From the NCBI GenBank assembly GCA_964425075.1, contig CAYRKM010000002.1:64058-128057 (forward strand): a DNA stretch of 64,000 nucleotides. Reading direction: 5' to 3'. Positions 7,809 through 43,694 of this stretch are shown one piece after another. Position numbers and translations under genes: made by a program. The notes under the pieces are model-generated. The model was not told where the DNA came from, ran no database searches, and was given only the letters and a program-made list of their open reading frames with translations. Each line of letters begins with the position of its first letter. Position 1 is the stretch's first letter. This DNA comes from an uncultured Gammaproteobacteria bacterium (GTDB taxonomy: Bacteria > Patescibacteriota > Microgenomatia > Levybacterales > GWA1-39-11).

Positions 7809-10800
7809 TTGAGTATTATGGAGACTTTACATTCCGGTTTTGATCATCCTCCCGTTGGTCCTGCTCCACATCCTGATTCTTCAGGTAGACCCGTCACCCA
7901 CCCACTTCCTGGCGAGCTAGATGGGGAAGGAATGCTTGATCCAACATCTTTGGATTTCTGGCGAAATCTTCATGCTAACCTTACAGGCTTTATAAGCAAG
8001 AACTATCCCTTTTCAGATTTCCTTAAGAATTTCGATAGTGAGAAAGGGAAAGTGGGTCGCACACATTCAAATGGCGATACAAACGCCACATACGCATACC
8101 TTAATGCAATTTATAAACAGCGTTCATTCTCGCATCCCGGCCATCCTACTCTTGAGCAGCATATCGTCTCGCAATTCACACCTCCTACAGATGACCCCGA
8201 CTTTGCTGAAATTGTTGAAGAAACCCGCTCTCTTATTAGACAGCGTTTTCCAGAACATCAGCTTCCTAGAACGACAAGTCTTGTCAAGCTCCAAGATCCG
8301 GAATTTTGGAGCGAATTTGAGGATGAGCTTTCAAAAACTCCTTCGAGTTCAATATTTGCGGATTTTTTAAAAGGAGGAGGTGGCCTTTCTGAAGACGGTA
8401 GTCAGATGCAGGGAAAGTATCATGATGTCTGGCTTGATATATACGATCCTCGGGGTAGAACTGAATTTAGAAATGCATATAAGGAACAAACAGGAAGAGA
8501 TATAGATACTGATTCTGCAAGAGACGCTCAGAGGATTTTCTTCGAAGTAGCACCAGCACGTATAAAAGCACAGCTTATTAAGAGATATCCGAGAATTTTT
8601 AGTGGATTTGCAGTAGAGTGGGTAGGAAATTCTCAATTACCAAAAGCTGCCCAGGCTGTCATTAACACTCTCGGGTGGTTAGGTGAAGATAACCGAAAAA
8701 AAATACTTGACGTACTTTCGAAATATGTGCATATAGAAACAAGTAGTACTTCGGGTTTTGATTTTTCTGCTGAAGATACTAGCATTATTCTTGGACAAGC
8801 AGCAGAACAATCAGAAGTTGTAGCAGCAGAAGTTGGTCCGCCAACACTCGAAACTATTATTCGAGACGCAACTAATACTTTTCAGCTTGTTGAACAAGAA
8901 AAGTTGGATAATGGGAATTCTGAAAATGAACAACTGTCAAGTGAGCTAACAGCTGCCCTTGAAACATCCTATCTTTACCCAACACTTCGTAATGTTTTAT
9001 ATAAACCTTTCGCACTTTTTTGGTCAAAATATCTGGAGACTCATGGTGGGTCCTCTGTTCCCGAAGATGAAATGAGAAGTTTTCTTGACACATATGCACA
9101 TAATGAAATTGCTCAAACATCTCTATCGCCCGAAGAGCAGCAAATGCTTGAGCGTCTTAAAAAAAATGTTTTTTCCACTATTTTTAGTGAATTTATAGAA
9201 ATTGCAAATTACTCTTCTCAAATTAATCACTTCAGGGAAAGAAGCATCGACGGGAAAGCAAAGCATCTGTTTTTTCATCAGGTTGAGGGAATTAAGCATC
9301 TTGTCGAAAAAGGCGCCGGAATTTTAGCTGATGAACCAGGAACCGGCAAAACAGTGACCCTTGCGCTCGCAGCATTAAATCGAGTTGACCAAAAATTTCG
9401 AGAACCTGGAAAAATAGCAAGGGTGCTAGTTGTTGGATCAAAAACTGTTAATAACAACTGGGAGGAAGAACTTGAAATGCATGTTGCGCCAGGTGATGTC
9501 GATACAGTAAATTTCAATTCTGACGAACTTGCACAGTTAAGCCAGGCAAAACGCCTTGAAATAATGGCACAAAGATTGAAAAATCCTACAGCGGATAGAC
9601 AAGTTTTGCTTGTCAATTACGATCTGTTTCGCAATTCATTTTTTCAGGAACTCCTTCATTCTGCAGGAATTGACTGTACAATAATTGATGAAGCTCATAA
9701 TGTAAAATCGCGTTTTATGGATTCTATTGCTGAGCATAACGACGACACGTCCCATAATGCTCGACTTGCAAAACGCACAACAAATCTTTATAGATTTCTT
9801 CTTTCCAACCCGAATATGGATGTTTATTTGGGTACTAGCACTCCCTTCGTCAAAGAATTAATAGAGCCGCTTATCATGGGTCACCTGGTCGATAGGTGGA
9901 GTCTTCCAATTGACCGGGTTTCAGCTTTAAGGGAGGATCCTGCTGGAGCAAATTTGGCACTTCGTGAAGTAATGATTCGGCGACGAAAGGATGCAATCAG
10001 CGATATCCCCCCAAAAGACACAGACTTTATACCAGTAGACTTAAGCCTACTTAGTGCTGCGGAACGCTCGGAGCTTGTTTCATTGGGCCTTGATATAGAA
10101 AGAGCCGATGAAAGCTCTTTCAGAAGATTTTTTTCCATGTTGTCTATTGAAGCTCAAGCAAAAATGCCCTGGCTTATTGAGAAAATAAACGAGTTAACAT
10201 CTGATGGAAGAAAGGTAGTTGTTTTTACTCCATTCGTTAATGACCAGGAAAGACTTACAGCCTCAATAAGTACGAAGGCTATTGCAAAGCGACTTATTGA
10301 TTCAGGAATTACCTCTGTTGGAGTTCTTGATGGAACTTTAAGTGAAAGCGAAAAACTTGCTGTTCAAAGAGATTTTCATGACCCGAATGGGGTAAGAGTT
10401 TTGGTAGGTAATTATCAAACGGCAGGCGAATCAATTACACTTAATTCGCCTTTCAATAGAGCAACTGAAGTAATTATACTCGTTGCACCAAACACAATAA
10501 GTAGATACATTCAAGCAATTGATAGAGTGCATAGAATCGGACAAGATGAGAAGGTTACTATTCACGTGCCTTTTCTTACGGAAGACCCTATCGCAAGGCC
10601 AGACGGAACATATGACAGACGAATTGTTAGTCGAATGCTTAGAGAACTTTCACTCTTTAATGCTGTTGTAGATGGTTTATTTTTTGTTGAAGCTGCAGAT
10701 TATTACGATGAAATTAGACGGGGAAAAAACGGAAACTCAGAACCAAGAACCGCTCTTGAAAGTGGACAAACAGTTCGTTTGGATACAGAACAGAAGCCTC

Positions 10801-12245
10801 CTGCTGCTACTAAAAAAAGGGGCTTAACTCGGGATGTTTTTGACCAAAACACTGACGGAGCAATAGTACTACCAACAAGCAGAGAGGTAAATTTAAACAG
10901 TATTGGCATAAATCACACACGACATCACCAAATAGACAGAGAGGAAGCTTTGGCAATTACAGATTACTTCGACTCAGTGAGTCAATACCCTCTCCTTACA
11001 GTTGAGCAAGAACGTATAGCATTTAGATATCTAACTGAGGGAAAATCTGTCGCACAACTTCGTGATGATGGAGCATTTCTTGCGGCAAATCCTCGTAGCA
11101 CTGCAAAAATGCTTGCTGTACTTTCCGATAGTCGCTCCGTTAGAGATGTACTTGTTGCCTGTAATTTGAGACTCGTTGCCTCAATAGCAAATAGGTACAA
11201 AGGAAGACTTCCTTACACTGACCTGCTCCAGGAGGGAAATATTGGATTAATTAAGGGAATTGACGATTTTGACCCTGAGCGTGGATTAAAGCTTTCAACA
11301 TATGCAACCTGGTGGATTAAGCAATCAATAAGGCGTGCTATTGCTAATACGTCCCGAACTATTGACTTGCCTGTACACATGCATGAAATGGTCACAAAAA
11401 TGGTGCGTGTTTCAAATGAATTTTTTAGTAAACACCAGCGCTATCCATCTATAGAGGAGCTGGTTTCAGAAGGGTTTACTATATCCCAAGTTAACACAGC
11501 TATGCGCATAGCACGACTTGGAATTTCCAACCCCTCATCTCTTGATAGAACAATAGACGATGATGGTGAAACCACAATCGGGTCATTTGTTTCGGACGAA
11601 GGTGATCTTGAAGAAGAAACTATAGCCGCGATGGAAGAGGCTGAGCAAAGTCATATCGTTGGGCGTGCACTTTTATCTTTAAGCGAACGGGAACAGTTGG
11701 TGCTTACTCTTAGATTCGGGCTTGATGGTTCTGGCACTAGAACCCTTGAACAGGTTGGTAAAGAAATTGGTGTGACAAGAGAAAGAGCACGACAAATAGA
11801 AGTTAGTGCCCTAAAAAGACTTCGAGTAAATACCGGGCTTAGGGAGGCATACGATGGAGATTCCCCAAGTTTGCTTTGGTCAAGGGAAGTCTTGCCTACA
11901 AACGTATTGCCTCTTAGACCAGGGCCAATAGACATTGAGAGGGTCTCAGCAATCTCACAAGCTCAAGAAGTAGAAAGGTTGGAGGAGGAGAAAAACAGTC
12001 TTGAATTTGGCAGACAAGTTGTGGAACAAATAAAAATGGTACCTGATATATGGAATGCTTTAACTGATAGAGAGAAGACGCTTTTGACTCTTTATTTTAA
12101 AGGCACATTTGACCACAACACTACTAAAAGTAGACTTTCAAAAATCTTTGGCATAACCGAACAAGAGCTGTCTGTTTACATCGAGTATTCTGTTGCTTCT
12201 CTAGCCAAACACGTTGGTATGACATCCTCTGAGCTTCCTTCTTGA
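7809..12245 (+). CDS. giant fusion protein: N-terminal unknown region + Snf2/RapA-like ATPase + complete RpoD-type sigma-70 + extra sigma-4-like HTH
   Basis: Uninterrupted 1478 codons (TTG at 7809; first ATG at 7818). Snf2 motifs ADEPGTGKT, IIDEAHNV, QAIDRVHRIGQ. Sigma region 2 DLLQEGNIGLIKGIDDFDPERGLKLSTYATWWIKQSIRRAI and region 4.2 TLEQVGKEIGVTRERARQIEVSALKRLR are near-identical to RpoD consensus. Confidence 0.8.
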   Translation: MSIMETLHSGFDHPPVGPAPHPDSSGRPVTHPLPGELDGEGMLDPTSLDFWRNLHANLTGFISKNYPFSDFLKNFDSEKGKVGRTHSNGDTNATYAYLNAIYKQRSFSHPGHPTLEQHIVSQFTPPTDDPDFAEIVEETRSLIRQRFPEHQLPRTTSLVKLQDPEFWSEFEDELSKTPSSSIFADFLKGGGGLSEDGSQMQGKYHDVWLDIYDPRGRTEFRNAYKEQTGRDIDTDSARDAQRIFFEVAPARIKAQLIKRYPRIFSGFAVEWVGNSQLPKAAQAVINTLGWLGEDNRKKILDVLSKYVHIETSSTSGFDFSAEDTSIILGQAAEQSEVVAAEVGPPTLETIIRDATNTFQLVEQEKLDNGNSENEQLSSELTAALETSYLYPTLRNVLYKPFALFWSKYLETHGGSSVPEDEMRSFLDTYAHNEIAQTSLSPEEQQMLERLKKNVFSTIFSEFIEIANYSSQINHFRERSIDGKAKHLFFHQVEGIKHLVEKGAGILADEPGTGKTVTLALAALNRVDQKFREPGKIARVLVVGSKTVNNNWEEELEMHVAPGDVDTVNFNSDELAQLSQAKRLEIMAQRLKNPTADRQVLLVNYDLFRNSFFQELLHSAGIDCTIIDEAHNVKSRFMDSIAEHNDDTSHNARLAKRTTNLYRFLLSNPNMDVYLGTSTPFVKELIEPLIMGHLVDRWSLPIDRVSALREDPAGANLALREVMIRRRKDAISDIPPKDTDFIPVDLSLLSAAERSELVSLGLDIERADESSFRRFFSMLSIEAQAKMPWLIEKINELTSDGRKVVVFTPFVNDQERLTASISTKAIAKRLIDSGITSVGVLDGTLSESEKLAVQRDFHDPNGVRVLVGNYQTAGESITLNSPFNRATEVIILVAPNTISRYIQAIDRVHRIGQDEKVTIHVPFLTEDPIARPDGTYDRRIVSRMLRELSLFNAVVDGLFFVEAADYYDEIRRGKNGNSEPRTALESGQTVRLDTEQKPPAATKKRGLTRDVFDQNTDGAIVLPTSREVNLNSIGINHTRHHQIDREEALAITDYFDSVSQYPLLTVEQERIAFRYLTEGKSVAQLRDDGAFLAANPRSTAKMLAVLSDSRSVRDVLVACNLRLVASIANRYKGRLPYTDLLQEGNIGLIKGIDDFDPERGLKLSTYATWWIKQSIRRAIANTSRTIDLPVHMHEMVTKMVRVSNEFFSKHQRYPSIEELVSEGFTISQVNTAMRIARLGISNPSSLDRTIDDDGETTIGSFVSDEGDLEEETIAAMEEAEQSHIVGRALLSLSEREQLVLTLRFGLDGSGTRTLEQVGKEIGVTRERARQIEVSALKRLRVNTGLREAYDGDSPSLLWSREVLPTNVLPLRPGPIDIERVSAISQAQEVERLEEEKNSLEFGRQVVEQIKMVPDIWNALTDREKTLLTLYFKGTFDHNTTKSRLSKIFGITEQELSVYIEYSVASLAKHVGMTSSELPS

Positions 12246-19550: not shown

Positions 19551-19627
19551 ACTAAAGTGCCTGCGCTGAATGAAGCTGAAGTGCTTGCACTGAGTGAAGC
19601 TGAAGTGCTTGCACTGAGTGAAGCGAA
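19551..19627 (+). repeat. tRNA-flanking tandem repeat (24-nt units, core AGTGC-YT-GCRCT), 3' side of tRNA-Ala
   Basis: ctaaagtgcctgcgctgaatgaag / ctgaagtgcttgcactgagtgaag x2. Confidence 0.8.
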
Positions 19628-21678: not shown

Positions 21679-21754
21679 GTTTGCCTGCACTGAACAAAGC
21701 TGAATGTGCTTGCACTGAACAAAGCTGAATGTGCTTGCACTGAGTGAAACGAAG
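21679..21754 (+). repeat. tRNA-flanking tandem repeat (25-nt units), 3' side of tRNA-Leu(TAA)
   Basis: gaatgtgcttgcactgaacaaagct x2 plus variants. Confidence 0.8.
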
Positions 21755-34853: not shown

Positions 34854-34937
34854 TGGGCTTGTGCTGAAATTGGTATACAGGCATGCTTGAGGTGCATGTG
34901 TCAGTAATGGCGTGGAGGTTCGAGTCCTCTCAGGCCC
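34854..34937 (+). tRNA. tRNA-Leu (GAG)
   Basis: Anticodon stem catgc/gcatg, loop TTGAGGT, long variable arm, T-loop TTCGAGT. Confidence 0.85.
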
Positions 34938-35088
34938 ACACAGAAAGGTTTGGATAGGACTCGGATTTTGTCAAAGAGTCCTCTCAGGCCCACTTCGTCC
35001 GCCTACCGGCGGACTCAGTGCGGGCACTTTTATAAATATAGAATAGGTTTTCCTTTTTGGGCTTGTCCTGAGAAGGCAAAGCCGACGA

Positions 35089-35161: not shown

Positions 35162-35185
35162 ACAAAGATATGACCAAGTGAGATT

Positions 35186-35258
35186 TGCCAAGATTGCCAA
35201 GTTGGTCAAGGCGCGTGTCTGAAGAACACGTTATCCGGGTTCGATTCCTGGTCTTGGC
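35186..35258 (+). tRNA. tRNA-Phe (GAA)
   Basis: Acceptor gccaaga/tcttggc, anticodon stem cgtgt/acacg, loop CTGAAGA. Confidence 0.85.
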
Positions 35259-36207: not shown

Positions 36208-36699
36208 ATGACTGAATTTGACCCTAAAAGAACTGGACCTGACCAAACTCCGCACTCACTTACACCAGAAAAGGTGAAAAGACTATTACCTCAAGGCGAT
36301 AGATTTAGATTTGTGAGTGAAGTTTTAGAGTATGAACCAGGGAAGCGGATCCTTGCAAGATTGGCAGATTTGGAAGGGCCTGAATTTGACTACCTAAAGG
36401 ATCACATGCCCGGAAACCCATTTATTCCAGGAACCATTCTCCAAGAAGCACTGGAACAAGCAGGAAGTTTGATTATAGCTGACTCTATTCCAGAAAATAG
36501 TTTTGCATTTCTCCGAGGAATTGATAAGTTTAGATGGTATGGATTTGTTGGGCTCGATGAGGAAGTGCTACTTGAAGCCAAAATAATCACGTTGAGATCC
36601 AATGCCGGGAAGGCTTCGCTAACAGCAACGAGGAGTGGTGAAATTGTGGCTTCAGGGCGAGTAATATTTGGTATTGGAGAAAAACCTCAGCTTGCTTAA
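36208..36699 (+). CDS. fabZ: 3-hydroxyacyl-ACP dehydratase (hotdog fold), FabZ-like
   Basis: Active-site region HMPGNPFIPGTILQEALEQAG matches FabZ/FabA HxPGxPxxPG signature. Confidence 0.6.
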   Translation: MTEFDPKRTGPDQTPHSLTPEKVKRLLPQGDRFRFVSEVLEYEPGKRILARLADLEGPEFDYLKDHMPGNPFIPGTILQEALEQAGSLIIADSIPENSFAFLRGIDKFRWYGFVGLDEEVLLEAKIITLRSNAGKASLTATRSGEIVASGRVIFGIGEKPQLA

Positions 36700-36804
36700 G
36701 ACTTTTTTTAACATATTTGACCTTAAGTCTTCTAGACTGAGATTTTCAACAAAATCTTGCTACATAATTTTTTTCTAAGGATTAAAAATAAAGCCTATAA
36801 TACT

Positions 36805-36832
36805 TGACATTTTGAACATCTCGTGCTAATAT
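36805..36832 (+). promoter_or_regulatory. sigma-70-type promoter for the structured RNA: TTGACA-16-TAATAT
   Basis: ttgaca at 36805-36810, 16-nt spacer, taatat at 36827-36832. Confidence 0.55.
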
Positions 36833-36839
36833 GCGCCTA

Positions 36840-37312
36840 TTCTGACTGATGGAAGTTTGAAGTGGTCAGCACTTATGTGTCTGAGCAGGGAGAACCTCCA
36901 AAGGTCTAGGAAGGACGGTTCGTTGAAACAGGTGGATAGCTAGCCGGCTTCGGCCGGATCCGGTGAAGGACCGGAAATGCAGCATGCTTGTGGAAGTCGG
37001 TCCCGGAAGGGATGACAACCACGCAGCCCGGGTGAAACCGGGTACGGAAAGGAGCAAGCCACATATGCTTGCGACCAGCACCGGACGGATGCTAAAGTTC
37101 GACGCGATCGACACCGCCGACCCGAACGACGTCATCGTCGGCTACTCGCCCACCCCGGATGGGGTCAACGGCACGTAGCTCGCCGCGACCGTCCCGAACG
37201 CTGCTAGACCGCTAGCCTAGAGAGGGAAACCTTTCTTTGCTAGCCAAAGCTAGCGCCACGTTCACCGCCCCCCGTCTTGGCACTGCCAAGTCGGGGGGCA
37301 ACTCTTTTCCTC
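36840..37312 (+). ncRNA. GC-rich structured ncRNA (~470 nt), identity unresolved; SRP RNA-like or RNase P RNA are candidates
   Basis: Sharp local GC rise with many nested helices. Contains a GGAA tetraloop hairpin (gucccGGAAgggau) and GGGUGAAAC. Consensus promoter upstream; GC hairpin plus T-run terminator at the 3' end. Confidence 0.45.
37267..37312 (+). terminator. intrinsic terminator of the structured RNA
   Basis: gccccccg-loop-cggggggc followed by aactcttttcctctcc. Confidence 0.7.
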
Positions 37313-37349
37313 TCCAAAAAAAATTCTTGAGAAATTAAATTAGAGACAA

Positions 37350-37491
37350 TGATGTGCCTGCACTGTGCAAGAAGTGTTACGTTGTGAAACAAAGTCTCGA
37401 AGTGCTTTCATCGATCAAGAAGTGCTTGCGCTGAACGAAATGGAAGCCTGCACTGAATGAAGTTGAGGTGCTTGCACTGAACGTAGTGAAG
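37350..37491 (+). repeat. tRNA-flanking repeat array (>=5 irregularly spaced units), 3' side of tRNA-Leu(CAG)
   Basis: Five irregularly spaced GTGCYTGCRCTGA-type cores, e.g. gatgtgcctgcactgtg, gaagtgcttgcgctgaa, gaggtgcttgcactgaa. Confidence 0.75.
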
Positions 37492-37574
37492 TGCCCGAAA
37501 AAGGAGTCGAACCTTCACACCCATAAGGGCACAGCGTTCTGAACACTGCGTGTCTACCATTCCACCATTCGGGC
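37492..37574 (-). tRNA. tRNA-Leu (CAG)
   Basis: Reverse complement has acceptor gcccgaa/ttcgggc, anticodon loop TTCAGAA, long variable arm. Confidence 0.85.
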
Positions 37575-37718
37575 AACAAACATATTGTAACAGAGACAAT
37601 TTATATCATAATTACTCAATTTCAAAGAAAAAAATTTGCCTGTAAATATTACCTTTAGACTATCTTATCAATCCAAACAGCACTTGACCAGAATTTTTTT
37701 TTATGGTTCTATAGAAAG

Positions 37719-38351
37719 ATGCAAGACAGGGTAAACACTAATTCCTCTAATTTTGAAAGCAAAAGCAATTCATCTCTTAAAAAGGTTTTGTTAGTAAGCA
37801 TTTATTTATCAGCCATTCCAATATTTATCGTTTTTGTAATGCTGTTTTCTCTTTACGCAAAGTACGACGTCAATGGATATATTTCTCGTCAGAATATTTC
37901 CCTTAATTACCGAGCTTTACCTGAAAATAGTAATAATAGTACTGTTTCTCTTGAAGCAGACGACGCTAGAATTCAAGCTCTCGAGGAGTTATTTGATACT
38001 TATGACTCACCTCTAGTTGGTCATGCAGCAAAAATAGTAGAAGAGGCTGATAAGCACAATATAGACTATAGACTTTTACCCTCAATCGCTATGCAAGAAA
38101 GCACTTTGTGTAAAAAAATTATAAAAGACTCTCATAATTGCTGGGGTTTTGGAATTTATGGAGGAAAAGTAACAAAATTTGATAACTATAATGAGGCAAT
38201 AGAAACTGTAACAAGAACATTATCCAAAAAATATGTTCAAGCTGGACTTGAAGAACCACATGAAATTGTAGAGAAATATACGCCATCTGATGACGGAAAA
38301 TGGGCAAATGTAGTCAATATGATGATGGAAACTATCAAAAACTCACTTTAA
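37719..38351 (+). CDS. N-anchored putative peptidoglycan N-acetylglucosaminidase (GH73-like)
   Basis: N-terminal TM; region LLPSIAMQESTLCKK resembles the GH73 catalytic-Glu block (A.A.LESGWG). Confidence 0.4.
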   Translation: MQDRVNTNSSNFESKSNSSLKKVLLVSIYLSAIPIFIVFVMLFSLYAKYDVNGYISRQNISLNYRALPENSNNSTVSLEADDARIQALEELFDTYDSPLVGHAAKIVEEADKHNIDYRLLPSIAMQESTLCKKIIKDSHNCWGFGIYGGKVTKFDNYNEAIETVTRTLSKKYVQAGLEEPHEIVEKYTPSDDGKWANVVNMMMETIKNSL

Positions 38352-38538: not shown

Positions 38539-39129
38539 ATGCAACTTATAAAGGTTACATTAAATATGAAAAGATATATTTTACCTATTATACTTTTGGC
38601 TTTTGCCAACGCAGCTATGCCATGGGCCCTTATGCCTAGGGTGTATCAAGCCTACGCGAAAGATACTGCATATACAAATGCGGAACTTTCTGTGGCTTTA
38701 AAAAATACTTCAGGAAATGACATGCGTGTTGATGCTTTGAGAATTATTTTTGAAAAGCGCAACTCTCCTTTAGTGCCTTATGCTAAGGCATATGTAGAAC
38801 TTGCTGATAAGCACGGTGTTGACTGGAAACTTTTACCTGCTATTTCAGGTCTTGAATCCTCATTTGGTATTCATTTAATGCCTGGCTCCCACAATGGTTA
38901 TGGGTGGGGTGGTGGACATATCTACTTCTCGTCTTGGGAAGAGGGTATTGATACTATTAACAAGGCTCTTGCTGAAAAGTATTATGGCCGTGGGGCAAAT
39001 ACTGTATGGAAAATTGGTCCTATTTATGCTGAGTCGCCTACTTGGGCTGTGAGAGTAAATAGCTTTATGGAGCAAATTGAGGCCGAGCATAACAAATTGC
39101 AAAACTCTAAGCTTGCCTTGACTATTTAA
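38539..39129 (+). CDS. paralog of the upstream GH73-like protein
   Basis: Shares the blocks YDSPLVGHA/RNSPLVPYA and LLPSIAMQES/LLPAISGLES with the 37719-38351 ORF. Confidence 0.4.
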   Translation: MQLIKVTLNMKRYILPIILLAFANAAMPWALMPRVYQAYAKDTAYTNAELSVALKNTSGNDMRVDALRIIFEKRNSPLVPYAKAYVELADKHGVDWKLLPAISGLESSFGIHLMPGSHNGYGWGGGHIYFSSWEEGIDTINKALAEKYYGRGANTVWKIGPIYAESPTWAVRVNSFMEQIEAEHNKLQNSKLALTI

Positions 39130-39170
39130 GGATAGCCTCAAACCCTCTTTTAGAGTATAATTGCCATATT

Positions 39171-39253
39171 GCCCGAGTGGTGAAATGGTATACACGCTAG
39201 TTTTAGGAACTAGTACCCTTACAGGTGTGGAGGTTCGAGTCCTCTCTCGGGCA
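39171..39253 (+). tRNA. tRNA-Leu (TAG)
   Basis: Acceptor gcccgag/ctcgggc, anticodon stem ctagt/actag, loop TTTAGGA, long variable arm. Confidence 0.85.
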
Positions 39254-39352
39254 CTTCACTACGTTCAGTGCAAGCACCTCAACTTCATTCAGTGCAGGCT
39301 TCCATTTCGTTCAGTGCAAGTACTTCGGGGCCTTGTTTCTCAGCGCTTGCAC
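39254..39352 (+). repeat. tRNA-flanking repeat array, 3' side of tRNA-Leu(TAG); same family in reverse orientation
   Basis: ttcagtgcaagcacctc / ttcagtgcaggcttcc / ttcagtgcaagtacttc. Confidence 0.75.
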
Positions 39353-42028: not shown

Positions 42029-42042
42029 CTTCCCCAATAATA

Positions 42043-42071
42043 TTGACAAGCAGGCAGTTTCGTTGTTAAAT
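42043..42071 (+). promoter_or_regulatory. sigma-70-like promoter TTGACA-17-TTAAAT, immediately after the stop of the upstream gene
   Basis: ttgaca at 42043-42048, ttaaat at 42066-42071. Confidence 0.4.
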
Positions 42072-42177
42072 ATAATTTATTCTATGAATAAAAACCTTTA
42101 CCACATTGCTATGGTGCTCCTTCTAGGAGTGTAGTAGTGTGGGAGGAAGAGTGATCTAAAACACAAAAAATATTTAT

Positions 42178-42204
42178 AAACCTCCCACCAGGGGAGGTTT
42201 TTTT
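42178..42204 (+). terminator. intrinsic terminator-like hairpin plus T-run
   Basis: aaacctccc-acca-ggggagg-ttttttt. Confidence 0.6.
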
Positions 42205-42228
42205 GTGTGTAAAAAGGAGGTGAAAAAT

Positions 42229-42351
42229 ATGAGAGAAAATAAATTTACAGATGTATCTGAGACAGTGCAGGCTTTGCCTGTCATATTTAAAGTGCAAGAA
42301 AACTCTCAATTCAAAACATGTTTGAACGAAATAATTTTCCTAAAAATTTAG
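42229..42351 (+). CDS. small ORF (40 aa), hypothetical; overlaps the 5' end of the 42318 ORF in another frame
   Basis: ATG 10 nt after SD aaaaaggaggtgaa. Confidence 0.3.
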   Translation: MRENKFTDVSETVQALPVIFKVQENSQFKTCLNEIIFLKI

Positions 42352-42533
42352 ACTTTCTCCCGTTGGAAGAAAGAGAAGCGTTGAGAGCATGCGGACGACT
42401 AGTTGAAGGAGATTTTGGTGGTGAGGAACCTATAAGAGTATTTGAAAGCTCAACCAATTCTTGGGAAACTAGAGAGGTTACACGTTTCGTAGCGCTGGAA
42501 AACGGTGTGCCAGTTACAATTTTTTCCTTATGA
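42318..42533 (+). CDS. small ORF (71 aa), hypothetical
   Basis: ORF-track entry; no obvious SD. Confidence 0.25.
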   Translation: MFERNNFPKNLDFLPLEEREALRACGRLVEGDFGGEEPIRVFESSTNSWETREVTRFVALENGVPVTIFSL

Positions 42534-42620
42534 TACTTGACATAGTATTCGGAAGTTATTAGAATAGATTTTATGCAAAACCAGGTAAAACTATTTTCGT
42601 TTTACTTTACCTTCGCCTAG

Positions 42621-42694
42621 CGGAGGTTGGTTTTCATTGTAAAAATTAACCTCCGAAGACTCGAACAGTCGAGTCGCTAGCGGAGGTTTTTTTG
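42621..42694 (+). promoter_or_regulatory. terminator/antiterminator-type leader: central aacctccg can pair with either of two cggaggtt copies
   Basis: cggaggtt (42621-28), aacctccg (42648-55), cggaggtt (42681-88) followed by TTTTTTT; the inner gactcg/cgagtc helix extends the terminator. Confidence 0.5.
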
Positions 42695-42759
42695 TGGATT
42701 AATGGAAAAAATTGGCTTGCCCAGAGGAAGTAAAGCCAACGAAAGGAGGTGAATTATTT

Positions 42760-42972
42760 ATGGTTATAGAAACAAGACAACAAATGAAAGCTGGTGTTAT
42801 GGACACTATGGCTATGCCAGGGCCTACAGCTAAGGGATCGAACTCTCTGTGGCTTGAAAAGGCTATTGCGTTTAATAAACTTGCACGCGAAGGAGCTGAG
42901 CATGATGCCCAAGTAATTGCTTTTGCTGAACTAGCTGCAAATGTTCCTTACACATTAAAGGTAATCCGCTAG
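42760..42972 (+). CDS. small protein (70 aa), hypothetical
   Basis: ATG 9 nt after SD gaaaggaggtgaa; in frame with track ORF 42712-42972. Confidence 0.4.
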   Translation: MVIETRQQMKAGVMDTMAMPGPTAKGSNSLWLEKAIAFNKLAREGAEHDAQVIAFAELAANVPYTLKVIR

Positions 42973-43010
42973 CTAGCACACAAAATTTTAAAAGAAAGGA
43001 GGAAAAAAAT

Positions 43011-43241
43011 ATGAGCGAAATATTAAGAAGAGCAGGTTATCATAGCACTCTTGCAGACGTTGGTACTCTACGTGAAGCAAGACCAGCTAACCATCACACC
43101 ACTAATATGCCAGATGGTGATTTGCCTGTTTTTGATCAGGAACAAGCCGAATTTGGATATCCTGCGCAATCAGCATTACCAAAAGAAACGCCTATGCCAG
43201 AGTCCTTGCTTCATGCAGGAGAACCTTTGAAGATTTTATAA
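43011..43241 (+). CDS. small protein (76 aa), hypothetical
   Basis: ATG after SD gaaaggagg. Confidence 0.4.
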   Translation: MSEILRRAGYHSTLADVGTLREARPANHHTTNMPDGDLPVFDQEQAEFGYPAQSALPKETPMPESLLHAGEPLKIL

Positions 43242-43451
43242 TATTAAGAGTTTCTTGATTTGAGGCAAAAAATACATTACACTACGGAAAAGTGAACAAT
43301 TGGTTCAGTTGGTTGCGATGAATTCATTCATCGAGCGATGTTAGAAGTGTGGAGTTGTAACTCAGTTGGGGTTCGACTTTTGAAAAATGGACTCATAAGC
43401 AGAGTTTGCTTTTTGTTTTCGAAAAGTAGCTCAGTTGGTTACATTTTGTGT

Positions 43452-43525: not shown

Positions 43526-43620
43526 CACAAAATGCGCTGAAGCGTTGCATTGACATTGCAGAGGCCAGAGAAGGAATTTCATTAATGAAATTCGACTGTC
43601 GTCAGCGAATCCTCTTGGGT

Positions 43621-43694
43621 CCACTTCACTTCGTTCAGTGCAGGCACTTCAGTTTCGTTCAGCACGGGTACTTCGTTACACTCAGCACAGACAC
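43621..43694 (+). repeat. tRNA-flanking repeat array, 3' side of tRNA-Val(GAC)
   Basis: ttcagtgcaggcacttc / ttcagcacgggtacttc / ctcagcacagacac. Confidence 0.65.

Follow-up and report, generated by a model that had tools for sequence, protein, structure and literature searches.

What is the compact block of DNA, rich in guanine plus cytosine (GC), that occupies positions 36838-37308 (+ strand) of the 64-kb stretch analysed here (hereafter the window, meaning the whole of that stretch)? This block, which we call the element, is the sole GC peak within the window that is not a transfer RNA (tRNA) gene, and it is flanked on one side by the terminator hairpin of a gene encoding a FabA-like protein and on the other by the 3' trailer of tRNA-Leu(cag), a convergent gene. 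We propose, with a probability of roughly 0.5, that it may be a lineage-specific, independently transcribed structured RNA, which could also carry a small open reading frame (ORF). This reading is based on the promoter at the 5' edge, the separate terminator of the upstream gene, strand-specific tetraloops, an excess of hairpins, and the lack of any protein homologue, and from these features we infer that the element is transcribed and acts as an RNA. The host is a reduced bacterium of the candidate phyla radiation (CPR)/Patescibacteria type, with an RpoD of 1478 residues and truncated threonyl-tRNA synthetase (ThrRS), PheT and trigger factor, and its lineage is almost unsampled. The order of tRNA genes in the window resembles that of a Woesebacteria metagenome-assembled genome (MAG).

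Composition, boundaries and predicted fold

Segments of 150 nucleotides (nt) with more than 53% GC were confined to the tRNAs and to 36841-37339, where the island peaked at 67%. The predicted transcript (36838-37308) has a GC content of 59%, rising to 62.2% over 36903-37299 and to 62-64% in the core, compared to 37.8% for the window, which bears out the abrupt GC rise reported in the first-pass annotation of this DNA. The 14 tRNAs of the window range from 45 to 63% GC (mean 55.5%), and because the 62% of the core falls within the range of the genome's own tRNAs, a foreign origin is not required to explain it. The + strand of the element is rich in A (23%) and poor in U (18%). An independent Logan assembly (L001) holds the element at 100% identity across both junctions, indicating that it is no assembly chimera; this identical sequence was the only other copy found. 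No second copy was present within the window, and Tandem Repeats Finder reported no repeats in the element. The tetranucleotide CTAG occurs seven times in the element against 1.7 expected, an approximately fourfold excess, compared to an observed/expected ratio of 0.43 in the rest of the window, and four of the nine GCTAGC sites of the window fall within the element. This excess fits either a functional motif or a foreign origin.

The element is bounded by the following features:

36804-36832 (+): sigma-70-type promoter with an extended -10, consisting of TTGACA (36804-36809), a 17-nt spacer and TGc-TAATAT (36824-36832)
36838-37308 (+): predicted primary transcript of ~470 nt, its ends placed from the promoter and the hairpin
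37267-37308 (+): terminator-like hairpin, with a GC stem of 14 bp, one U-U mismatch and a 3-nt ACU loop (37267-37299)

The promoter matches the consensus at 10 of 12 positions, includes the TG of the extended -10, and predicts a transcription start near 36838-36840. Both hexamers, TTGACA and TAATAT, had been recognized in the first-pass annotation, but the spacer between them is 17 nt and not 16. The pattern TTGACA-N16-18-TANNAT was found four times in the window, compared to 0.92 expected; judged by ORF coordinates, two of the other three sites lie closely upstream of large genes (24708 and 62922), and the third lies upstream of small ORFs that are preceded by Shine-Dalgarno (SD) sequences. 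Because sites of this type are over-represented and located upstream of genes, the promoter of the element is probably functional. At the 3' end, the hairpin is followed by AACUC-UUUU-CC (AACUCUUUUCC at the 3' edge), with UUUU at 37305-37308. The GC-clamped terminator with a T-run that had been described here is a strong GC hairpin as claimed, but its U-run is short and offset, and a scan for consensus terminators made no call at 37267-37308. The upstream FabA-like gene owns a small terminator hairpin, which is kept in a relative through a compensatory change (AGTCT/AGACT versus CGTCT/AGACG). Since that gene has a conserved terminator hairpin of its own, we treat the element as a separate transcription unit.

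The whole element folds with a minimum free energy (MFE) of -216 kcal/mol, corresponding to a z score against shuffled sequences of -6.3 on the + strand versus -4.2 on the - strand. The + strand MFE structure contains 13 hairpins, seven of which have perfect stems of at least 5 bp, compared to a mean of 2.95 in 300 dinucleotide shuffles, 1% of which reached seven. It also contains three UUCG or GNRA tetraloops (at 36949, 37005 and 37226; shuffle mean 0.29, with 0.3% of shuffles reaching three), compared to zero GNRA or UNCG tetraloops on the - strand. Taken together, the tetraloops, the perfect stems, the strand-biased folding and the composition of more A than U support selection acting on an RNA of the + strand. 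The base composition of paired relative to unpaired positions showed no departure from the shuffles. Every hairpin named in the first-pass annotation is present as written. The folding signal is uneven along the element, with a z score of -8.7 for the 3' 117 nt and -2.8 for the 5' hairpin, and the predicted parts are as follows:

36844-36906 (+): 5' irregular hairpin domain, 45% GC and native-like; -26.3 kcal/mol, 86% of the ensemble, z -2.8
36903-36923 (+): 5' strand of a long-range closing helix (GGUCUAG..GGACGGU..), paired with 37187-37210 in the MFE and centroid structures
36924-37186 (+): central multi-hairpin domain; z -2.6 on the + strand, -2.3 on the - strand
36944-36957 (+): C(UUCG)G hairpin in the central domain
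36960-36974 (+): CCGGU-GAAGG-ACCGG hairpin in the central domain
36996-37016 (+): bulged GGAA hairpin in the central domain
37027-37042 (+): CCCGG-GUGAAA-CCGGG hairpin in the central domain
37054-37072 (+): GCAAGC-CACAUAU-GCUUGC hairpin in the central domain
37187-37210 (+): 3' strand of the long-range closing helix (CGACCGUCC....CUAGACC), in the MFE and centroid structures
37196-37263 (+): 3' nested stem-loop on GCUAGC palindromes, capped by AGAGAGG-GAAA-CCUUUCU with its GNRA loop at 37226-37229; together with the terminator hairpin -64.8 kcal/mol, 75% of the ensemble, z -8.7
36939-36944, 37211-37216, 37239-37244 and 37249-37254 (+): four GCUAGC palindromes, among seven CUAG in total between 36939 and 37254

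Coding signal, known RNA classes and homologues

The element also contains a candidate reading frame:

37046-37178 (+): candidate small ORF, with SD-like GGAAAGGAG at 37046-37054, a 10-nt spacer, ATG at 37065, 37 codons and TAG at 37176-37178

The ORF previously listed across the element (36963-37178) was said to lack an SD sequence. This is true of its GTG start at 36963. However, GGAAAGGAG precedes an in-frame ATG at 37065, and an SD-preceded ORF of 37 codons with a strong codon-phase GC bias had been overlooked. The candidate product is an acidic peptide of 37 residues, MLATSTGRMLKFDAIDTADPNDVIVGYSPTPDGVNGT. Within 37095-37178, 25 of 26 third codon positions are G or C, compared to 42% GC at second positions, and this codon-phase contrast of 0.54 was equalled by 1.3% of shuffles. 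The periodic stretch (~85 nt) is partly a loose 9-nt repeat, nnCGACnCn, in four copies, and the signal is therefore less informative than 26 independent codons would be. Local genes use the SD sequence AAAGGAGG with spacers of 8-10 nt. SD-like purine runs are common in the element, as exemplified by GAAGGA located 6 nt before the ATG at 36977, which opens an ORF of only 12 codons, and for this reason the GGAAAGGAG match is weak evidence. An open frame of 37 codons is expected by chance at 60% GC.

A protein-coding homologue of the internal ORF, which would have spoken against an RNA according to the first-pass annotation, was not found at the protein level. Six-frame queries of the element against 5.8 billion proteins gave no homologue at E<=10, and none was found for the - strand ORF among 1.84 billion representative proteins, for the translated + frame in the protein collection, or for translations of the element in PDB; Pfam and PHROGs contained no family matching the 37-residue product. 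A HAD-IIA gene fragment was considered on the basis of a marginal NCBIfam match (E 0.04-0.09) and rejected, as it was supported neither by the PDB search nor by BLASTP against an approximate sequence of Escherichia coli NagD. Searches of the protein collection for homologous RNA loci that had been mis-called as genes, with queries made from the + frame, from the ORF of the - strand and from the six frames concatenated, returned none.

The element belongs to no described RNA family, and it is not a housekeeping RNA. At the gathering threshold, Rfam 15 recognized only the 14 tRNAs in the whole window. The first-pass annotation had recommended covariance-model searches for ribonuclease P (RNase P) RNA, signal recognition particle (SRP) RNA, transfer-messenger RNA (tmRNA), ROOL, GOLLD and group II introns, and none of these matched stretches of 901 and 486 nt, where filters are lax, even at E<=10; the same was true of 6S RNA, OLE, raiA and HEARO. 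Besides the tRNAs, this search gave four sub-threshold matches, which we treated as chance. The best of them was DUF3800-X (RF02984) at 36986-37059, with 17.7 bits compared to a gathering threshold of 38.2 (E 0.7-1.4). The element aligns to the full length of this model and shares with it the outer stem and the strings AAGUC, GGAUGA and GUA-GG; however, Pfam scans of eight ORFs neighbouring the element revealed no DUF3800 domain.

The suggestion of a divergent SRP-like or RNase P RNA found no support in either the covariance models or the signature motifs. The Rfam models for small and large bacterial SRP RNA were silent, and the domain-IV consensus GGUCCGGAAGGAAGCAGC had zero matches with up to three mismatches. 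What had been likened to SRP domain IV is a GGAA-capped hairpin (UCCC-GGAA-GGGA), but this is a plain stem with one bulged G, without the symmetric and asymmetric internal loops of the bacterial SRP domain. RNaseP_bact_a and RNaseP_bact_b gave no match at E<=10, and the conserved regions CR-I (GAGGAAAGUCC, allowing 3 mismatches) and CR-V (ACAGAAnnnGGCUUA, allowing 2 mismatches) are absent from the element. ARAGORN was negative for tmRNA at its default settings, with no Rfam match and no tRNA-like domain; at relaxed settings it called permuted tmRNAs on each strand, mutually incompatible and marked 'tag not identified', and these were judged spurious. Group II intron domain V was rejected on structural grounds, as the internal loop of the 34-nt GAAA hairpin (37211-37244) is of the symmetric 2x2 type, in place of the 2-nt 3' bulge of domain V, which also has an AGC triad and a GNRA loop. 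The template repeat of a diversity-generating retroelement was rejected as well, there being no second element copy and no reverse transcriptase in the window, where the only YxDD motif among ORFs of at least 80 amino acids was a chance occurrence where the ORF for threonine-tRNA ligase begins. A miniature inverted-repeat transposable element, or another insertion with terminal inverted repeats, was also rejected; the candidate terminal inverted repeat (I14) is weak and AT-rich, and lies in a flank that is conserved in the relative, and so does not mark the end of the element.

Like ROOL (RF03087) and GOLLD (RF01998), the element is several hundred nt long, rich in hairpins, tRNA-adjacent and of unknown function. 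The first-pass annotation had drawn this analogy from a neighbouring tRNA-Leu and repeat array, and both of these are in place, as tRNA-Leu(cag) at 37491-37574 (-) and an array at 37340-37490. The analogy is nevertheless weak, because such arrays follow six of the 14 tRNAs of the window and also follow tRNAs in other CPR genomes without such an RNA. ROOL and GOLLD are reported to form homo-oligomers (PMC12286853), and the self-complementary GCUAGC motifs of the element could in principle permit comparable RNA-RNA contacts. Unlike those RNAs, the element has no Rfam match at E<=10, no phage context and no viral-contig match, and its adjacency to a tRNA is uninformative amid 14 tRNAs. The Breaker laboratory has reportedly used screens of intergenic regions by GC content versus length to detect GC-rich noncoding RNA (ncRNA) candidates in AT-rich genomes. 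The element would stand out in such a screen, being a long intergenic sequence that exceeds the genome by ~25 GC points, contains many stable hairpins, and has a promoter at one edge and a hairpin at the other; candidates of that type, however, become classes only through covarying homologues, and the element is a single-genome orphan. The RNAIII of Staphylococcus aureus is about 514 nt long, has 14 hairpins and encodes the 26-residue delta-haemolysin. The element is similar in length, with 13 MFE hairpins, a promoter and terminator of its own and an internal SD-preceded small ORF, but it has no sequence relation to RNAIII and a very different composition, and its translation and target pairing are candidates only.

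One route to homologues was synteny with the adjacent FabA-like protein (hotdog fold; 36208-36699, 163 residues). This near-orphan had a single homologue among the 5.8 billion proteins, at 79% identity. In the contig encoding it, from a relative (L002), the flanks align with the window up to ATAAAGCC and resume from the tRNA-trailer repeats, and ~55 unrelated nt replace the ~550-nt element. Scans for exact motifs yielded zero matches in viral contigs (two motifs), GTDB species genomes (a 23-mer) and JGI metagenomes (a 20-mer). Peptide-pattern scans of viral and metagenome contigs with the + frame translation gave pattern matches only, none of which was confirmed, and blastn and tblastn against phages and plasmids gave only chance matches (E of at least 0.4). 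The tRNA-trailer repeat led to 31 loci, four of them from three CPR MAGs that share such arrays, and among these neither blastn nor nhmmer detected the element and no comparable GC island was present. The searches by these routes relied on exact words or exact 20-23-mers, so that distant homologues could have been missed. A literature search on structured RNAs of CPR bacteria found nothing relevant. With no covariance-model match and no copy in the only close relative, the known-class readings of the first-pass annotation fall away. Its fallback, an unclassified large ncRNA extending from promoter to terminator, survives, given the strand-specific tetraloops and the excess of perfect hairpins.

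Competing explanations for the element

If the element is an RNA gene, RNA polymerase would start at the extended -10 promoter (36804-36832), transcription would stop at the GC hairpin (37267-37299), and the ~470-nt product would fold into four parts. The 5' hairpin would be followed by a cluster of short hairpins in the centre, enclosed by a long-range helix of 17-19 bp, and then by two 3' structures, a nested stem of very high stability made from GCUAGC palindromes and the stem of the terminator. Such an RNA would most likely be a stable molecule that binds proteins or serves as a scaffold; antisense regulation is less likely, given that a core of 62% GC has few pairing partners in a genome of 38% GC, and it may double as a messenger for the 37-residue acidic peptide. 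It is unlikely, though conceivable, that the element is the first representative of a new class of large structured RNAs in CPR/Patescibacteria, composed of hairpins with UUCG or GNRA caps, with self-association possible through the four GCUAGC motifs and perhaps a dual function through the 37-codon ORF. The host lineage is sampled so sparsely, with one homologue of the neighbouring gene among 5.8 billion proteins, that such a class could have gone unseen until now.

Several observations weigh against an RNA gene. The only close relative is without the element at the syntenic site, and no homologue was found in genome, metagenome, viral, plasmid or phage DNA, so that neither covariation nor conservation lends support. 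Two 3' hairpins supply most of the folding signal, and the central 310 nt reach z scores of just -2.6 (+) and -2.3 (-), which is nearly strand-symmetric. The U-tract is weak, and foreign DNA would likewise show an excess of CTAG and GCTAGC amid the CTAG avoidance of the host. In addition, the codon-phase GC signal and the SD-ATG combination point to coding or formerly coding sequence within the element. It is a tentative possibility that the element is non-functional foreign DNA, a recent acquisition of ~500 bp from a higher-GC organism or mobile element that comprises the 3' end of a gene, running through the TAG at 37176-37178, together with its terminator hairpins; the promoter match would then be fortuitous or irrelevant. 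Such an origin would account for third codon positions that are G or C in 25 of 26 cases next to a second-position value of 0.42 (37095-37178), in a signal that ends exactly at the stop codon and is succeeded by two very stable hairpins. The gap in the relative, the CTAG excess against the 0.43 of the host and the share of GCTAGC sites, and the central-domain folding that barely exceeds shuffles are consistent with it, as is the surrounding tRNA-rich region, with its strain-level rearrangement and duplicated tRNA ends. However, the 10/12 extended -10 promoter lies exactly at the 5' edge, and such sites otherwise mark genes in the window; the strand-specific UUCG and GNRA caps, matched by 0.3% of shuffles, also count against this reading. 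Six-frame searches against 5.8 billion proteins and the metagenome and viral peptide-pattern scans revealed no donor or homologous protein, and the marginal HAD-IIA match was backed by neither PDB nor BLASTP. Furthermore, the periodic signal covers just ~85 nt and coincides with the loose 9-nt repeat, and the element does not exceed the most GC-rich tRNAs of the host in GC content.

The same coding signal could be native. The element would then be the messenger of a small protein, the 37-residue acidic peptide (37065-37178), with a structured 5' leader of ~227 nt and a double 3' hairpin, and the RNA structure would serve stability or translational control, as suggested by the position of the start codon within the loop of the GCAAGC-CACAUAU-GCUUGC hairpin. 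We consider this decidedly unlikely. The SD-like GGAAAGGAG stands 10 nt before the ATG, resembling neighbouring genes in type and spacing, the ATG is in frame with the GC-periodic stretch, and the unit is bracketed by a promoter and a terminator. Yet a third-position GC content of ~0.9 is the opposite of what is expected for a native gene in a 38% GC genome, the peptide has no homologue and no family match, and no partner genes (e.g., for peptide-modifying enzymes) lie nearby. The frequency of SD-like purine strings in the element and the chance expectation of a frame of this length further reduce the weight of the match. A highly divergent SRP RNA, RNase P RNA or tmRNA that escaped the standard models is very improbable. 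Size and GC-richness would suit a tmRNA or RNase P RNA; in addition, the fold includes the long-range helix, and an internal frame runs to a stop codon. None of the three RNAs was found elsewhere in the 64-kb window, although this is expected anyway with one gene of each per ~1 Mb genome. Against this stand the silence of Rfam at E<=10 with lax filters, the missing tRNA-like domain, the negative default and contradictory relaxed ARAGORN calls, the absence of CR-I, CR-V and the domain-IV consensus, and the lack of the element at the syntenic site of the relative. The remainder of the probability falls to an artefact.

Should the element prove to be a real RNA gene, it would add an unclassified large RNA to the CPR, whose ncRNA repertoire is almost unexplored, and would offer a simple target for structure probing or cryo-electron microscopy. 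If it is a foreign remnant, it would document that a bacterium of the episymbiont type, with a reduced genome, took up DNA from an organism of higher GC content. Either way, SRP-like, RNase P-like and ROOL/GOLLD-like labels do not apply, and the promotion of this single-genome orphan to an RNA class requires expression data or homologues.

Repeats at tRNA genes and other genes of the window

Tandem units of ~22-24 nt were found directly 3' of six of the 14 tRNA genes in the window, always on the tRNA strand:

19557-19618: tRNA-trailer array
21681-21744: tRNA-trailer array
35014-35027: tRNA-trailer array
37340-37490: tRNA-trailer array
39255-39330: tRNA-trailer array
43620-43660: tRNA-trailer array

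The consensus of the unit, read on the tRNA strand, is about TTCGTTCAGTGCAAGCAC-TTC, with a core, GTGCTTGCAC, that forms a perfect 10-bp palindrome. The last bases of each unit, GCAC-TTC, resemble a tRNA end and its trailer, and the repeat had 22 matches compared to 5.35 expected. The same arrays abut tRNAs in the relative (L002, 2290-2395) and in MAGs of Gottesmanbacteria, Woesebacteria and Parcubacteria (L015, L017, L018, L022). A literature search for such arrays found no description, and we know of none. The pattern also matches several contigs each of two Anaerolineae/Anaerolineales MAGs (L006, L008, L019, L016, L020, L025), which suggests that a similar dispersed repeat may occur outside the CPR.

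Other rearrangements were seen at the tRNA genes. The final 18 nt of tRNA-Leu(gag) occur in two exact copies, at 34922-34939 and 34976-34993, whose starts are 54 nt apart, and the anticodon arm of tRNA-Val(gac) (GCGTTGCATTGACATTGCAGAGG) recurs downstream of that tRNA at 43527-43565. Both duplications resemble scars left by integration or recombination at tRNA genes. An inverted repeat of 158 nt (37419-37576 and 39169-39326, 86% complementary) consists of tRNA-Leu(cag) and tRNA-Leu(tag) with their trailer arrays, and brackets two paralogous glucosaminidase-like genes (37719-38351 and 38539-39129). The independent assembly L001 diverges over its positions 1-720 from the window at 35183-35202, just upstream of tRNA-Phe, and is otherwise identical; a 215-residue ORF takes the place of the tRNA-Leu/Val cluster there. 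The divergence is either a strain-level rearrangement or a branch of the assembly graph at the tRNA cluster.

The RpoD-like sigma factor of the host is encoded at 7809-12245, and the sigma-70 regions occupy only residues ~1050-1340 of its 1478, so that ~1000 residues precede them as an N-terminal extension. Finally, the region 42030-43260 lies within a 1.7-kb stretch without large ORFs and contains several ORFs of ~48-86 amino acids, each preceded by AAAGGAGG. A promoter that matches the consensus (42537-42565) is also present, as are hairpins with a T-run behind them, CCTCCCACCAGGGGAGG being one example, and the region may represent a cluster of genes for small proteins.

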